A stretch of DNA of 64,000 nucleotides from Eledone cirrhosa (lineage: Eukaryota): positions 123,194,001 to 123,258,000 of the forward strand of contig OZ024741.1 in the NCBI GenBank assembly GCA_964016885.1, in the 5' to 3' direction. This document shows, in pieces, positions 4,709 to 60,136 of the stretch. A model generated the notes under the pieces. The model did not search any database. It was given only the letters and a program-made list of their open reading frames with translations, and had not been told where the DNA came from. Numbering within the stretch: position 1 is the stretch's first letter; the number at the start of each line of letters is the position of its first letter. Both the position numbers and the translations under genes were made by a program.

Positions 4709-5029
4709 TCGTGTTCCAATCAATATACAGATAGGGTGTGCAAAATAAATATATAAAGAGAGATTTAGTTAATTATGTCTCATATAAAATAATACAACCA
4801 ACTTTTCACGGAATACTATATAGTTAGCACTCCAAACACTTAATTGGGATTATACTTAGGTATATCCTAATGTTTATTGAGTGAGATGGAGTTGGTCAGA
4901 GTATCGCTTAAAGCTTTCTCTGTTAATGTATTAAATATATATATATATATATATGTTTGAAAAAAAGGAAAAGAATGACTTCACTTGTAGTGTTAACAAA
5001 ATTATGATTTAATGTTATAATATAATATT

Positions 5030-5170
5030 CGCCATGCTTTGACGCATGCTTGCCATTCTGAGTTCAAATCCCGCCGAGGTTAACTTTGCATTTCATCCTT
5101 ACGGGATCGATAGAGTAAAGAACCAGTAATGTACTGTGTATTTGCTGGCCTTGTGCCAAAAGTAGAAACA
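5030..5170 (+). mobile_element. tRNA-derived SINE, family S1, 5' truncated
   Basis: B-box GAGTTCAAATCC, core TTTCATCCTTACGGGATCGATA, tail GGCCTTGTGCCAAAAGTAGAAACAATT shared with many copies in the window. Confidence 0.85.
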
Positions 5171-5278
5171 ATTATATTATAACATTAAATCATAAATTTA
5201 TTAACACTATAAGTGAAGTCATTCTTTTCCTTTGTTTCAAATATACCTAACTGTACCAAGGATCTCACACATCTTCCA

Positions 5279-5525
5279 ATATATATATATAAATATATAT
5301 ATATATATATATATAAATATATATATATATATATATATATATATATAAATATATATATATATATATATATAAATATATATATATATATATATATATATAA
5401 ATATATATATATATATATATATAAATATATATATATATATATAAATATATATATATATATATATATAAATATATATATATATATATATATAAATATATAT
5501 ATATATATATATATATATATATATA
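5279..5525. repeat. (TA)n microsatellite with periodic AA interruptions
   Basis: Directly visible. Confidence 0.95.
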
Positions 5526-8016
5526 ACCGGCGGAAAAAAGGGGCGCTGTGGTGGTGTGGGGCGCCGACTTCTACACGGCTGAAGCCCTCAAGCAGCTCCA
5601 CAACCCCCTTTCTACCGCCCCCTACCTTCCGACCCCACCCCCTCTACCAACAACAAGTTTCCTCCACCACGCAACACCTCGTCTCCTTCTCCCATATCCC
5701 TCCCACCGCCTCCCACCTCATCGTCCGCACCCCACACCCCCACCATCTACTTCCTCCCCAATATCCACAAACCCGACGACTGAGACCGCCCCATCGTGTC
5801 CGCCTGCAACTGCCCCGCCAAACACATCACCGCCTTTCTCGACTCCATCCTCGCCCCCCTCGTTACCGCCCTCCCCTCCCATATCTCGGACACCAACCAC
5901 GCCCTTCGTCTTTCTCACCTTGTCACCGGCCCACACCCCCTCATCTTGACCCTAGACATTAAGTCCTTCTACACCATCATCCCTCACGCCGACGGCCTAC
6001 GAGCCCACCGGCACTACCTCGACCTTACTTCCAACTCCTCCGGATCCGCCGCCTCTGCAGCCAAGATGCTGACTTTGAAACCCAGGCTCTCTCTCTGGTC
6101 AGCCATTTCACTCGGAGAAGTTTCCCCTCTCCCTCGTCTACGCCGCCCTCACTCGCGCCCGCACAGTCCCCCGCTCCACCGCCCTTACACCACGCCTCGC
6201 GCCAACTCACATTTTCCCCCTCACCTACCACGTCACCGCTCTTCCCCTCCAACAAACCATCGTCCGCCCCTTCCGAAGCCTCCAGTCCGACCTCTCCACC
6301 TACCCCATCTTCCCATGCCCCTCACCTCCTTCAAACGCGTGCAACCACCGCAACCTCCTCGTCCACCGAACAACACACCCGCTTCACCCGAAAGATCCAA
6401 ACCCGCCGGTTTGAACTTCCCACTCCTCTTCCTTTAGCCTTCGACCGTTCCTCTCCCCCTACACCCCCAACTAACACCACTAAAACACTCCCAAGATTAA
6501 CAGTCCCCTCCAGTCACCCCCACCCCCTTGGTCCATCCCACACGTAATACTACTCACCCCTCCCCTACCATACACGCACCCACACCTTCAACACGCACAC
6601 ACACCAGTATATATATATATATATATACACTCATTCACACTATTCACACCCCCTACTACCACCACTAACCCCCACCAACACATCCACATTCAACCACTCC
6701 ACCACTAATAATACTAACCTACCGTCACCCTTCACCACGCACACACGAACACACACCAGCATATACACACCCACCCACACCTACGTACACACCGATACAC
6801 AACCTACTCCACACCCACACTACCAGCACTAACCCCACTACCACACACATACACCCCACCCCACCACCACTAATAATACAAACACCTACCCCTACCACAC
6901 ACACGCACACACACACTAGTATATTACACTCACTCATACAGTACCAATCACCTATTCTCTCCCCACGTACTACCCACCCCACACATCCTACTAACACCTC
7001 CACTAATATACACACAACCCCCTACATACACCACCACCCCCTCCTTCCACTTTTCACACTGACCCACCCCTCTCCCGTCCACCGCACCTCCGCACACACA
7101 CATTCCTACACATCTGCTACTACCTCTGACACTGACTACTCTTTGACTCCTCTTCTCCCTTCTTCCTCTCTCGCACACTTCCCCCCTGCCTTCTCCGCCC
7201 CGCCTTGACCTTCTTGACCACTTCCTGTGGCGCTCGCCCCACAACTTTCTACTTCCTCCTCACCAATTCCACGGATTTACACGAGTGGCCACACTCTCAG
7301 GATATCTACAAGCTAATAGCCGGATGTTCACCATCCGTCCACACACTCACCGTGAAACCATTCAGGAACACACACACACACACACACACACACGATCACT
7401 TCCACCATTTTCGTACACACGCAACCATACATTCCCACGTATCCATACCACACAAACATATACACACACATACGAGCGTATCCTCACATAAACCCACTCT
7501 GCGTCCGGACTCCGCACCTTCCCTCTCCCCCGCCCCTTCCGACTCCTCTACATCCACATGCACACACACAGACTTACACCCCACCCTATGTACACACTGG
7601 CTTTCGTAAAACCCGAGCATGGAACCTCGTACTTCCCCAAACTCTCACACTCACATCCGCGCATATACACACACATACACCCACCTACCCCACCTGCCGC
7701 CCTCCTCGCTCGGACCCCTATCCCCCCCCCCCTCCCTTCATCCACCCACCACCAACCTCCAGACGCCTCACACCTTTTCAGCATTTGTTTTCAACTTATT
7801 GTTCCACTTATTTTTATTTTTATTTTTTTCCCTTCACTTTAATTTTTTTCATGTTATTTAAATGCCCCCCCCCCCCTCCCGGAACTCCTCCCCTTCAACC
7901 AATCTCCTGATGAAGGGCTTATGCCCGAAACGTGTTCCGCAACCCCCACTCTCAAGCGTGAACCTAATACCTAACACCTTTCATAAATGGACTCCTTGTT
8001 GTTATTTACTTTTCCA
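5526..8016 (+). mobile_element. Penelope-like element remnant, 5' truncated and internally deleted, C/A-rich
   Basis: RT pieces [12 protein letters not shown] and [26 protein letters not shown]...[14 protein letters not shown]; linker LTSFKR; HHR core near 3' end; (TA)n on both flanks. Confidence 0.8.
7902..7935 (+). ncRNA. Hammerhead ribozyme core, minimal PLE type; stem I not evident
   Basis: CTGATGA-A-GGGC-TTAT-GCCC-GAAAC-GT. Confidence 0.6.
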
Positions 8017-8139
8017 ATATATATATATATATATATATATACAACCAAAGATTAATATGGTTCGTTGATTATTCAACTGCCAATACTGGAATTGAATAAT
8101 CAAAACAGTAGCGGTATGTCGCATAACAAATCTTATATA

Positions 8140-8194
8140 TTGTCTGATGAAAACTTACTTAAACATCATTGGACCTTTGAAATATGTATAATAA
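8140..8194 (+). ncRNA. Degenerate type I hammerhead motif
   Basis: TTGT-CTGATGA...GAAA-TATGTA-TA-ATAA; stem I 4 bp, stem II weak, overlaps AATAAA. Confidence 0.4.
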
Positions 8195-57914: not shown

Positions 57915-58446
57915 TAATATATAAGAACAAAAGATGGTTAAAGGAGTTCCATGTATTTTATTATGCGCATTTCAAAAACAAATAACATCATGCAATAATA
58001 TTTGTGTTTTCATCAGATAAAACAGGAGGACATGATATGAAGGCTAAAAAACATTTGTGGATAGTTCAGTTTTAAATCAACATATGAGAAATAGTTTTAG
58101 ATTGATGTGTGATATTGGAAAAAATATTTTATGAAGGGGGGTGGGGGTGGAAAGGATGAAAAAAAGAGGAGGAGATGAGAGTGAAGGTAGAGAGTGAGGA
58201 GTATATTGAGGAATGATGAGATAGGAGGAGAGATGGGTGATAGAGAGAGAGAGAGATAGTTTTTATAACTGAGAAAGATATATTGTTTTACATAGAGAGG
58301 TTGAAACCCGTTGGAAGATAATGTATAAATTAAAAGAATTTGAAAATTAACGAAGAGAAAAAGAGAAAAATATGTGCGAAGAAAGAGAAGGAGTTAATAT
58401 GTATTGAGAATAATGAGTTAGATGATAGGGAGAAAAGAATAATGAA
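57915..58446 (-). repeat. Direct repeat D2
   Basis: Copy of 54921-55465. Confidence 0.85.
57954..58024 (-). ncRNA. Type I hammerhead, intact (D2 copy)
   Basis: Same as 54960-55030; differences confined to distal stem II. Confidence 0.85.
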
Positions 58447-59045
58447 AAAAACAATAATGAAAAAAAGAATAATGAACAAAATAATGAAAAAAATAATGAA
58501 AAAAATAATGATATTAAATTTCTCTTGGAGAGGGCAGTCCTCTTTAATCTTACAAGAGCAGCTTGGATTTATGTCAAGTAACTCTTTAGAGTATTTTTTA
58601 TCATATAGAGTGGACACATGGAAATGATATCTTGGCAAAATTGCGATTGGATACTTTAGTGTATATATACTATACTGCAAATTGTGGTGGGAAATGTCTA
58701 TCTATTGAATGTAAAATCTACTTACATACGTTAGTCTTTACTTTACTTTTCTGTTAGCATATTTAGTATGGTTAGTTTGGGATTGATTGGGTGTGTGCTT
58801 AATTGTGTCCTTAAAACCAGTATCTAGGAGGGTTTGGGTGTAGTAAGTCGCAGCCATATAGAAAATCTCCCTGGTTGCAAATAGATTTGATATCCAACGG
58901 CTAATATCACTAACTAGGTTTTCAAAACCTGCAGGAAGTGTGGCATGAGGCTTTATTACTTTATTTAAATTATTCGTTAGGGTTATGATATTGTTAATAC
59001 AAAATAGAGGTTTGGTATAAATTAAACTATCTTTAAATAAGAAAA

Positions 59046-59143
59046 AATCTGCTGATATGCAAATCTGGCTGATCAGTGGATCTGCTAATATGCAGATCTG
59101 ACTGATCAGCCAGTCTGCTAATATGCAAATCAGGCCGATCAGT
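59046..59143 (+). promoter_or_regulatory. Three 33 bp tandem units carrying octamer motifs (mirrored at about 56232-56329)
   Basis: ATGCAAAT at 59057, ATGCAGAT at 59090, ATGCAAAT at 59123; the repeat is certain, the regulatory role is inferred. Confidence 0.45.
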
Positions 59144-59206
59144 CACTGTATATTTGAGAAAATATCATATATTTTCACTAGCTCTGGCAGTTGGCAGGTG
59201 AATAGT

Positions 59207-59256
59207 GAACTGTACTGAAGAAGGATGATACCCAGAAACATTAGTTTCTGCAGTTC
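59207..59256 (+). ncRNA. Type I hammerhead (R2)
   Basis: Mirror of 56119-56168 with one stem II change. Confidence 0.68.
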
Positions 59257-60136
59257 TGTTTACATGCCAACACAACAGCAATAACGAAGAGTTCATTCTA
59301 CTGACATGGCTTTAGAAATGAGGCTTGTTTGCATAATTGAAAACGAATCGAATATTATTATTAATATACGAAAAATTCAGATTAAATTTAGACTATGTAT
59401 ATATATATATATAAATATATATATAAATATATATACTCAAACATTGTTTCTGTTCCCTCATCTTCCCACTCTATATCTTTCTATTTCAACTTTTAATTCT
59501 TACTTATTTTCTGATAAGGGAAAAGTAACTGACACATAAAAGATCCTTTCAGGCGTTAAACTAATATATGACCTCCATCGTAGTGTGTTGTTTGCTTCGT
59601 TGTCTTCATGTTTGCATATATATATATATATATATATATATATATATATATATATATATATATATATATATAACCACGCAGCTCTCCATTTTCTCATATA
59701 TATATATATATATATATATATATATATATATATATATATATATATGGACACACTCACACACACACACACACACACAGAGTCACACACACACTCATATATA
59801 TATATATATATATATATATATATATATATATATATATATATATATATATATATATATATATATATATCATGAAACATGTCTATAGAATCACAAGATAAAA
59901 TATATACCATTTCCTCTCCCAATTAGTATAATTAACTATATAAAAAATCGAATAGACCAGGCTATAAGAATGAGGTTTCTATGAAGATATCTCCAACAAA
60001 TAACCGAAACTAGCCCTTCGCGTCGGCCCCAACGGAATATTTATCGAATATTTCGACAGCGTAATCGCCCAGATACAGTCAATTAAACAGAGTTAGGTGT
60101 AAAACAAACTAGGAGAAAATAGAATACATTTAAAAT

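Follow-up and report, generated by a model that had tools for sequence, protein, structure and literature searches.

Putative PLE-mobilized non-coding elements, among them hammerhead-bearing retrozyme-type families, in a genomic window of Eledone cirrhosa

Non-LTR retrozymes are non-coding, AT-rich tandem units that contain a type I hammerhead, and their mobilization by Penelope-like elements (PLEs) via circular RNA has been proposed (Cervera and de la Pena 2020, PMC7229834; Li et al. 2026, 10.64898/2026.07.22.740005). In the available portions of these papers, the case for a link to PLEs is built on co-occurrence, on hammerheads in common and on pLTR phylogeny, and does not draw on insertion structure. 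For insertions of EN+ PLEs (Naiad, Hydra, Neptune) and of non-autonomous Chlamys elements such as MRC1, the available part of Craig et al. 2021 (PMC8557442) describes partial tandems, an inverted 5'-truncated copy, a tail of 30-40 bp and a (TA)n target, as in the case presented here. The SINE-like elements Sm-alpha and Sj-alpha of Schistosoma have a tRNA-derived head (tRNA-Gln in Sm-alpha, PMC2770079) and, according to work cited in the available part of PMC2220036, a Pol III internal promoter.

All the evidence reported here comes from one 64,000-nt window of Eledone cirrhosa (GCA_964016885.1, OZ024741.1, positions 123,194,001-123,258,000), with only two copies per family. One family, R2, shares with the retrozymes the non-coding, AT-rich tandem units with type I hammerheads, and with non-autonomous Chlamys elements such as MRC1 the multicopy head-to-tail arrangement (PMC8557442, available part). 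At 434 bp, the R2 unit slightly exceeds the range of 170-400 nt given in the available portions of the retrozyme papers (PMC7229834; 10.64898/2026.07.22.740005) and, unlike in retrozymes, one of the three full units at 47 kb has a decayed core. Copies of R2 and of a second family, R3, show the PLE insertion architecture in full, with inverted arm, tail and (TA)n, known here from sequence alone. The fingerprint itself has already been published; what is new are the hammerheads, octamer block and homology of R2 and R3. Given that these retrozyme-like families bear the PLE insertion fingerprint (inverted arm, offset ends, (TA)n target), the question of what moves retrozymes becomes testable at scale, in a copy-rich genome and with the existing in vitro PLE assay.

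Fold-backs and their (TA)n setting

The first-pass annotation listed seven fold-backs as small elements of unrelated families, all next to (TA)n and with no evident direct TSD. All seven exist in arm-to-arm alignments, with identities of 70/75 (4952-5026/5171-5245), 121/124 (8256-8379/8537-8660), 30/31 (12862-12892/13027-13057), 129/139 (13308-13440/13727-13865), 170/182 (47504-47685 vs the tandem R2 unit) and 139/158 (49471-49627/49655-49812), and two mismatches per 1143 positions in 55724-56866/58509-59651. The last locus, 55759-59616, is not a small element but a 3.9-kb composite. The loci comprise two copies each of a tRNA-headed element, R2 and R3, and one orphan palindrome; because R2 and R3 are homologous (see below), they are not all unrelated families.

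Adjacency to (TA)n holds for most, not all, of the ends: 11 of the 14 homology-defined outer ends of these seven pre-selected loci lie within 10 nt of a (TA)n run of at least five units (background, 5.1%), and 12 within 40 nt. The ends that miss at 10 nt are 5245 (34 nt away), 13090 (48 nt away, with an A39 run in between) and 12862 (276 nt away, with only (TA)3). As an unbiased check, we enumerated local inverted repeats on the repeat-masked window; after pairs of independent copies of the SINE R1 and pairs of the two tRNA-element copies were dropped, 12 loci remained, of which six adjoin a (TA)n run of at least five units (binomial p about 5e-4). None of the five enumerated fold-backs that were absent from the earlier list adjoins such a run. 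As had been claimed, none of the nine fold-back intervals tested has a non-TA TSD, and there are only two short TA-type matches; a pure-TA TSD is invisible inside (TA)n, so that the search covers non-TA types.

In all six fold-backs whose polarity is marked independently, by a hammerhead or a tRNA head, the 3' ends point outward; these six represent only three families. In four of the seven loci (4952, both tRNA-element copies and R3), the arms are offset by 33, 37, 33 and 34 nt, respectively; in the other three, the offsets are about 50, about 218 and 0 nt, so that a fixed tail does not fit, and R2 strictly lacks a tail of 30-40 bp. The outward 3' ends, the head-to-head arms and the putative tail of 33-37 nt in four of the seven loci correspond to the published PLE insertion architecture. 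Overall, the fold-backs and, mostly, their (TA)n flanks stand, whereas their unrelatedness, the role assigned to R1 and the count of PLE remnants do not.

Hammerhead-bearing families R2 and R3

R2 and R3 are represented by these copies:
13259..13722, minus strand: R2 monomer, exactly one unit, beginning just past the 3' terminus of the family; octamer at 13681 and hammerhead with core at 13593
13727..13862, plus strand: inverted 5'-truncated R2 copy, stopping about 50 nt before the family terminus, at (TA)n
47505..47685, minus strand: inverted arm of R2 that carries a hammerhead (core 47600); (TA)26 at the 3' end; 3-nt overlap with the tandem block
47683..49299, plus strand: head-to-tail array of R2, comprising 0.6 unit and three units of 434 bp; octamers at 48033, 48467 and 48899; hammerhead cores at 48555 and 48987, decayed copy near 48120; 3' end at (TA)n
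49472..49654, minus strand: left arm of R3, hammerhead core 49647; (TA)n at the 3' end
49655..49846, plus strand: R3 right arm, beginning within the hammerhead; 34-nt tail; ends at (TA)26
55978..56330, minus strand: R3 copy; of its three 33-bp repeats, two retain an intact octamer; hammerhead core 56160; (TA)n at the 3' end
57657..57705, minus strand: R3 tail fragment between TA runs

The non-coding, head-to-tail R2 units have a 3' terminus that recurs in two independent copies, and the inverted copy at 13727..13862 has subfamily features in common with its own main arm. The hammerhead core is intact in four of the five R2 copies that span the site, and consecutive hammerheads are found in adjacent units (cores 48555 and 48987), the former with one stem III substitution. 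The three units and the inverted arm at 47 kb show a star-like pattern of differences (25 singleton sites, 1 split, 1 other), as expected if one template gave rise to all of them. Among the R2 copies, the hammerhead is no more conserved than its flanks (9/43 variable columns vs 16/78 and 13/57). In R3, intact cores are present at 49647, 56160 and 59215, with no tandem arrangement in the window.

The two families are homologous (z=11; alignment score 63 vs a maximum of 62 in 2000 shuffles), with the octamer and the hammerhead core aligned, and both conserve the octamer block ATGCAAAT about 90 nt upstream of the core. An octamer is also contained in the promoter of newt satellite 2. That satellite is likewise a tandem hammerhead repeat, with an snRNA-type promoter (cited in PMC2220036, available part).

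In descriptor scans, the first descriptor produced three matches in the window vs none in each of 20 shuffles; a refined and a looser descriptor, both tuned after the motifs had been seen, produced eight matches scoring at least 11 (0.03 per shuffle, 30 shuffles) and eight scoring at least 12 (none in 15 shuffles), respectively. All 11 matches of the looser descriptor scoring at least 10 have a (TA)n run of at least five units within 170 nt downstream in the sense direction (background, 12.6%); these matches represent five families and, in some R2 copies, the TA run is internal to the unit. No hammerhead was found among the 150 of 178 Rfam window matches listed, nor in two local scans, and in MFE folds of monomers the hammerhead mostly does not form, with only one of the eight hammerhead-like regions folded better than shuffles. 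Hammerheads also occur in two other PLE-type 3' ends, the first of which is without a fold-back:
11404..11900, minus strand: R5; core 11491; z -3.0 in the fold comparison; ends at (TA)n; 5' limit approximate
54925..55727, minus strand: R4a; core 55022; ends at (TA)n; left neighbor of the large fold-back

With their predicted type I hammerhead motifs and octamer block, R2 and R3 classify as retrozyme-type non-autonomous PLEs. Their putative mobilization into (TA)n by PLEs is well supported by the hammerheads, the outward 3' ends, the 34-nt tail of R3, the tandem and unit-length copies of R2 and the matching architecture.

The tRNA-headed element and the R1 SINE

The tRNA-headed element is present in two copies, each with an inverted partial duplicate:
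8258..8539, minus strand: main arm of copy 1, made up of one 258-bp unit and a further 26 nt; A and B boxes in the tRNA-like head (8353-8425); (TA)7 at the 3' end
8537..8697, plus strand: inverted 5'-truncated copy; 37-nt 3' extension; ends at (TA)14
12862..13025, minus strand: main arm of copy 2, whose 5' end lies 2 nt upstream of tRNA +1 (head at 12952-13024); only (TA)3 at its 3' end
13025..13125, plus strand: inverted 3' end; 33-nt extension, then A39, possibly a poly(A) tail or slippage

As in tRNA-derived SINEs, there is a tRNA-related 5' head with A and B boxes, and dispersed copies begin at this head. The copies are 158/179 identical and differ in their anticodon loops; a T5 run about 10 nt past the tRNA could stop Pol III. 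Sm-alpha, which has a comparable head, carries a hammerhead, whereas none was detectable above noise here in the descriptor scan, yet the inverted copy and the tail are present. Sharing the architecture of R2 and R3 without a ribozyme, the element is a plausible candidate for a PLE-mobilized SINE, with 12862-13090 the weakest locus as regards (TA)n and the absence of a TSD. With such an element, the concept of a SINE would come to include a partner other than a LINE, and PLE passengers may be among the unclassified SINE or MITE calls in such genomes.

The element might instead be an ordinary SINE mobilized by a LINE (for example, a microsatellite-targeting REL or APE LINE), with inversions produced by L1-type twin priming or later rearrangement. 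The tRNA head with its A and B boxes, the 5' end at tRNA +1, the A-tail in one copy, the lack of a hammerhead and the left end at 12862, outside long TA, all fit this reading, as does the abundance and recent activity of Dong-R4, RTE and CR1 LINEs in O. vulgaris (table in the available part of PMC13282606). We nevertheless consider it rather unlikely: in both copies the 3' end is duplicated in inverted orientation and extended by 33-37 nt, and a LINE-type TSD is found in neither. L1-type twin priming yields an inversion with deletion and is not known to duplicate the 3' end.

At the locus 4952-5245, R1 is the spacer and not the arms:
4955..5029, minus strand: left arm of an orphan 75-bp palindrome (70/75 identity to 5171-5245); adjoins (TA)10
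5030..5173, plus strand: nested 5'-truncated R1 SINE, at the exact center of the palindrome, with a possible 3-bp ATT duplication; not a PLE passenger
5171..5278, plus strand: right arm (5171-5245) with a 33-nt unpaired extension, a putative tail; ends at (TA)n 5279-5525

R1 is rejected as a member of the PLE guild. None of 36 ends (18 BLAST matches) lies within 40 nt of a (TA)n run of at least five units, and 4 of the 12 copies tested have TSDs of 16-17 bp (random matches of at least 10 bp, 0.25%); ordinary TSDs and the lack of TA bias are what the first-pass annotation itself had set against its proposal. With its B-box head, (ATT)n tail, 5' truncation, TSDs of 8-17 bp and high copy number, R1 has the profile of an ordinary LINE-type SINE, presumably resembling the tRNA-derived Deu/CORE-type SINEs and not PLE-like.

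Candidate driver, mechanism and alternatives

At least six PLE remnants had been claimed in the window. Protein-coding remnants are found at four loci, three Hydra-like and one Neptune-like (five when the duplicated one is counted twice), and six is reached only when non-coding hammerhead-bearing 3' ends are added. The Hydra-like label comes from tblastn to RT homologs and by-eye matching to a Hydra alignment; the Neptune-like label is an assumption from motifs.
5527..8016, plus strand: degraded, presumably Neptune-like PLE; RT match 5527-6408; (TA)n at both ends; hammerhead-like core at 7907, scoring below the scan thresholds
51424..51612, minus strand: Hydra-like PLE C-terminal (GIY-YIG region) fragment; E 1.5e-4
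56401..57644, plus strand: broken, 5'-truncated Hydra-like PLE with RT thumb, CxCX5C linker, EN remnant and 3' UTR; E 4e-9; ends at (TA)6, head-to-head with R3
61038..62759, plus strand: degraded Hydra-like PLE RT-EN remnant, second Cys of the CxCX5C changed; E 3e-42; interrupted by an R1 copy with a 16-bp TSD

Non-autonomous Chlamys elements generally share 3' sequence with their autonomous partners (PMC8557442, available part), whereas none was detected here: the comparison of 3' ends, proposed earlier as a check, produced no significant match in 272 comparisons with the 3' regions of the window's few decayed PLE remnants. None of the four passenger motifs was found in the published Naiad/Chlamys/Hydra supplement, where line wraps may hide matches.

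The arms with their polarity and offsets, the TA adjacency, the hammerhead motifs, the R2-R3 homology and the PLE remnants were all read from the sequence. We consider it likely that the non-coding RNAs of R2, R3 and, probably, the tRNA-headed element are retrotransposed in trans by the RT/GIY-YIG protein of a (TA)n-targeting PLE of the Hydra, Naiad or Neptune type; which of these acts is something we infer, not observe. Octopus Naiad and Hydra families prefer (TA)n (PMC8557442 supplement), and PAc cuts and extends both strands, with the tail representing the gap between two RT start sites (PMC11167929). Transcription would start from an internal promoter, the octamer block in R2 and R3 and the A and B boxes in the tRNA element. 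The R2 and R3 multimers would be cut by the type I hammerheads, with their palindromic stem III, into monomers that probably circularize. The PLE endonuclease would then cut both strands of a (TA)n array, each freed 3' end priming reverse transcription at an internal site near the RNA's 3' end, and two preferred start sites about 35 nt apart would leave the tail. One cDNA would be long, spanning a full unit or, on a circular or multimeric template, several units, whereas the other would stop early. Head-to-head joining of the two 5'-truncated cDNAs via 0-4 nt of microhomology or filler would yield (TA)n-[3'<-5'][5'->3']-(TA)n, with any TSD hidden in TA. The earlier proposal of PLE mobilization is well supported in the case of R2 and R3, plausible in that of the tRNA element and refuted in that of R1.

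More tentatively, the PLE machinery could mobilize a true ribozyme-free, tRNA-headed Pol III SINE beside octamer-promoter retrozymes, and 55978-57644 could be the product of one event in which the two target strands primed on different RNAs, one on that of R3 and one on Hydra mRNA. Such an event would directly identify Hydra as the driver; a later nested insertion of Hydra into R3 is the alternative.

The remaining parts of the large composite are:
55760..55939, no strand given: segment F, of unassigned identity, outer end of the large inverted duplication
57909..58508, minus strand: R4b, 92% identical to R4a; hammerhead core 58016; 12-bp-period stutter at 58433-58508, beside the inversion junction
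58509..59615, plus strand: inverted copy of 55760-56866 (99.8%), with the Hydra piece, R3, TA and F; ends at (TA)n

Here, DNA-level template switching, in which stalled replication forks at self-complementary (TA)n fold back on themselves, copy adjacent sequence and make inverted duplications with no RNA step, fits best: the 99.8% identical arms include TA runs and segment F and end at the same position, and a 3-nt microhomology junction lies beside the repeat stutter. This duplication may be a DNA-level or assembly event. As an account of the fold-backs at large, template switching is quite improbable, given the family-specific recurrent termini, the 3'-outward polarity, the offsets of about 35 nt and the lack of host sequence in the arms of the small elements, as well as the A39 run after the sense 3' end at 13087.

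An origin as MITEs or TIR DNA transposons that insert at TA, already disfavored, is a very poor fit: the inverted repeats are TA-flanked and the 4952 arms end at nearly one point, but no fixed, equal terminal inverted repeats were found, the inversion point varies within families (in the tRNA element, 124 vs 31 bp; in R2, different positions in the unit), the arms are of unequal length and have no spacers, and there are tandem units and ribozymes. Assembly or read-chimera artefacts are a far-fetched source of the fold-backs: such structures are noted to trouble assemblies (PMC8557442, available part) and the 1143-bp arms are nearly identical, but in the six small fold-backs the two arms diverge by about 2-12%, unlike those of a chimeric read, and the large one has a 1.6-kb spacer outside the duplication and a junction stutter that is absent from R4a.

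Fold-back insertions at (TA)n arrays

The first-pass annotation had marked seven segments of this AT-rich, repeat-dense window, which contains 76 runs of at least five TA units, as carrying inverted copies, and self-BLAST together with pairwise alignment recovered a fold-back in each of them (all counts refer to the single 64-kb window).

Fold-backs and identity of their arms
4952-5245, orphan palindrome, 70/75
8256-8697, tRNA-headed element, copy 1, 121/124
12862-13090, tRNA-headed element, copy 2, 30/31
13262-13862, R2 (a hammerhead-bearing unit), 129/139
47504-49300, R2, 170/182
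49483-49803, R3 (a related hammerhead family), 139/158
55759-59616, composite with R3, 1141/1143

With the outer ends of the fold-backs set by homology, 11 of the 14 lie within 10 nt of a (TA)≥5 run and 12 within 40 nt, against a background of 5.1% at 10 nt. The proposed adjacency to (TA)n thus holds for most ends but not, for example, for the left end at 12862 (tRNA-headed element, copy 2), where there is only (TA)3. No non-TA target site duplication (TSD) was found in any of the nine intervals tested. The families had been described as unrelated, which does not hold for all of them: there are two copies of the tRNA-headed element, two of R2, two of R3 and one orphan palindrome, and R2 and R3 are homologous.

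Because the seven loci were hand-picked, local inverted repeats were enumerated across the masked window. Removal of 6 pairs of independent copies of the abundant SINE R1 and 1 pair of tRNA-headed copies from the 23 rows, followed by merging of rows from the same locus, left 12 loci, of which 6 adjoin (TA)≥5 (p ~5e-4); all five loci outside the original list are far from such runs.

In all 6 loci with a polarity marker, representing 3 families, the 3' ends of the RNA lie on the outside and the 5' ends, which are truncated, abut head-to-head, with 0-4 nt of overlap or filler at the junctions. The arm overshoot is 33, 37, 33 and 34 nt at four loci, and ~50, ~218 and 0 nt at the remaining three. 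For Penelope-like elements (PLEs), Craig et al. (PMC8557442) describe copies in partial tandem, an inverted copy truncated at its 5' end, a tail of 30-40 bp and targeting of (TA)n, the last also in Naiad and Hydra families of Octopus; non-autonomous Chlamys are described as well. According to Frangieh et al. (PMC11167929), both strands are cut and extended by a PLE protein, the tail corresponds to the distance separating two internal sites at which RT starts, and insertion in vitro needs no hammerhead cleavage. The fold-back signature is real and, given this match, is the already known fingerprint of PLE architecture. In the probable model, R2 and R3, and plausibly the tRNA-headed element, are non-coding RNAs moved in trans into (TA)n by PLE RT/GIY-YIG machinery.

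Other inverted or TA-flanked structures are present as well. An old fold-back at 12452-12859, with arms 66-70% identical, ends on the right at the insertion point of copy 2 of the tRNA-headed element; no hammerhead was found in it. TA-rich short palindromes without adjoining (TA)≥5 occur at 52763-52823, 61043-61077 and 29287-29336, and short pieces of 24-60 nt flanked by TA runs, at 59672-59793 and 13166-13226, are possibly tail-only insertions into TA arrays.

Hammerhead motifs and the putative retrozyme-type families

No hammerhead was present among the 150 of 178 Rfam matches listed for the window or in two local scans; all of these Rfam scans returned only tRNA and microsatellite-driven miRNA noise. 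Motif-plus-structure scans, in contrast to their shuffled controls, detected hammerhead cores in several families: 3 matches vs 0 in 20 shuffles with the first descriptor, 8 matches scoring at least 11 vs 0.03 per shuffle with a refined descriptor composed after the motifs were already seen, and 8 matches scoring at least 12 vs 0 in 15 shuffles with a looser one.

Hammerhead cores from motif-plus-structure scans
13593, 47600, 48555, 48987, R2
49647, 56160, 59215, R3
55022, 58016, R4, outside the original fold-back list
11491, R5, outside the original fold-back list

In the looser scan, each of the 11 matches scoring at least 10 is followed downstream, at most 170 nt away, by a run of (TA)≥5 (12.6% in the background). 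Most matches have a palindromic stem III, as is typical of dimer-dependent hammerheads of metazoans and PLEs (PMC4209133). Counting against the motifs, a monomer MFE fold beat its shuffles in just one of 8 hammerhead-like regions; such folds are mostly uninformative, as expected of dimer-dependent hammerheads. Also on that side, the motif is no more conserved than its flanks across five R2 copies, the pattern expected of dead copies.

R2 and R3 can be aligned across ~260 nt (z=11; score 63 vs a maximum of 62 and a mean of 29 in 2000 shuffles), which superimposes their hammerhead cores, a TA-rich hairpin and the octamer block ATGCAAAT. The segment 13259-13722 is exactly one R2 unit, beginning directly after the family 3' terminus, and the 47-kb locus comprises 0.6 + 3 units with the same 3' terminus. 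Differences among the three units and the inverted arm at 47 kb are star-like (25 sites are singletons, with 1 split and 1 other), and the inverted arm at 13 kb has features in common with its own main arm, both of which point to arms derived from one template in one event. Both observations also fit a circular or multimeric RNA. By the criteria applied, taken from PMC7229834 and bioRxiv 10.64898/2026.07.22.740005, R2 qualifies by sequence as a non-LTR retrozyme, and R2 and R3 are putative new retrozyme-type members that bear the PLE fingerprint. R3 contains a putative PSE-like motif; at 56232-56328 and 59046-59145, upstream of the R3 hammerhead, the octamer block forms three 33-bp tandem repeats. 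Newt satellite 2 has an snRNA-type promoter, as cited in a passage of PMC2220036. Hammerheads and retrozymes are not mentioned in the main-text portions of PMC13282606 covered here.

R4a (54925-55727), R4b (57909-58446; the two 92% identical) and R5 (11404-~11900) are (TA)n-terminated PLE-type 3' ends without a fold-back, and R4 holds the top-scoring hammerheads of the window. Degenerate hammerhead-like motifs lie 45-90 nt upstream of microsatellite runs at 49986 (-), 8144 (+), 47338 (+), 7907 (+) and ~57570 (+). Only the first scores 10, and none clearly exceeds shuffle noise; the motifs seen by eye at 7907, 8144, 47338 and ~57570, and in F (the outer segment of the large inverted duplication, 55760-55939), were rejected on this ground.

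The tRNA-headed element and R1

In both copies of the tRNA-headed element (158/179 identical), the head resembles a tRNA and contains A and B boxes, but the anticodon loops differ between the two, which implies that neither is a functional tRNA. Copy 1 comprises a 258-bp unit and a further 26 nt; the 5' end of copy 2 lies 2 nt upstream of tRNA +1, and an A39 run terminates its inverted arm. The 3' end is duplicated in inverted orientation in both, each with a tail of 33-37 nt; no TSD was found at either, and a scan of both strands detected no hammerhead above noise. A T5 run shortly 3' of the tRNA head complicates a simple Pol III model. Schistosoma Sm-alpha, the nearest precedent, derives from tRNA-Gln yet contains a hammerhead (PMC2770079). 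Searches of an incomplete literature collection, on tRNA SINEs moved by Penelope and on Penelope with twin priming, brought up no SINE that lacks a ribozyme and is mobilised by a PLE. It is plausible that this element is a new variant of PLE passenger.

R1 had also been counted among the passengers, from which it has to be removed. None of its 36 ends (18 matches) has (TA)≥5 within 40 nt, and among 12 copies, TSDs of 16-17 bp were found in 4, an 11-bp AT-rich repeat in 1, 8 bp in 2, 6-7 bp in 3 and none in 2 (random expectation for a repeat of at least 10 bp, 0.25%). R1 is an ordinary SINE outside the passenger group. At 4952-5245, the entire spacer of the 75-bp orphan palindrome is occupied by R1, and the palindrome in turn carries 33 nt of additional sequence ahead of (TA)n. 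R1 also forms dimers or trimers in head-to-tail order, with a period of ~200-232 bp, at 42416-43026 and 46474-46884. A 3' end common to R1 and the RTE-like LINE was considered and withdrawn, since 23274-23371, where the two match, is R1-like sequence lying within one of the RTE copies.

PLE remnants and the large composite

PLE coding remnants were mapped by tblastn, for which the 17 longest homologues out of 151 served as queries.

PLE coding remnants (tblastn)
5527-6408
51424-51612
56401-56886, duplicated at 58519-58974
61038-62759

Three of the four are Hydra-like by motif (CxCX5C). The homologue P0001 of remnant 5527-6408, which we take to be a Neptune PLE, has both an RT and, at its C-terminus, a GIY-YIG domain. 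Pfam found no PLE domain in 20 window ORFs, matching only LINE RT/EN and Helitron, and a homologous-protein search with 61880-62254 returned nothing at E<=0.001. The comparison of passenger 3' ends with PLEs that had been suggested gave no significant match to the remnants in the window: over 272 tests, significance was reached within families and for R2-R3 only. None of 4 passenger motifs was found in the published PLE consensuses. The matches of F (p 0.01) and R4 (p 0.02) to 8041-8243, and a 19-nt match between the tRNA-headed element and R2 (p 0.035), were discarded as multiple-testing noise, and that between Hydra and Neptune 3' regions (p 0.005) as low complexity.

The composite 55759-59616 consists of F, R3 (-), Hydra (+, with (TA)6 at its end), a fragment of the R3 tail, and R4b, and its final layer is a recent, 99.8% identical inverted copy of 55724-56866. 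Hydra and R3 are arranged head-to-head, each with its 3' end at TA; co-insertion or nesting could explain this. For the final duplication, read-through by a PLE, switching of DNA templates at (TA)n and mis-assembly are possible origins. Where the large inversion joins, there is an A-rich stutter with a 12-bp period (58433-58508) that R4a lacks, which suggests that a polymerase or RT slipped at a genuine junction.

The window also contains two related RTE-like LINE copies in opposite orientation (22624-26919 (+) and 31230-35183 (-), 71-88% identical), a Helitron-like fragment at 27414-28244 (Pfam Helitron_like_N, E 1e-4) with a hairpin-plus-CTAG end at ~29620-29650, and a GC-rich L1/Tx1-like LINE remnant at 36281-40629 (Pfam APE, RT) with an internal 800-bp direct duplication (68%).
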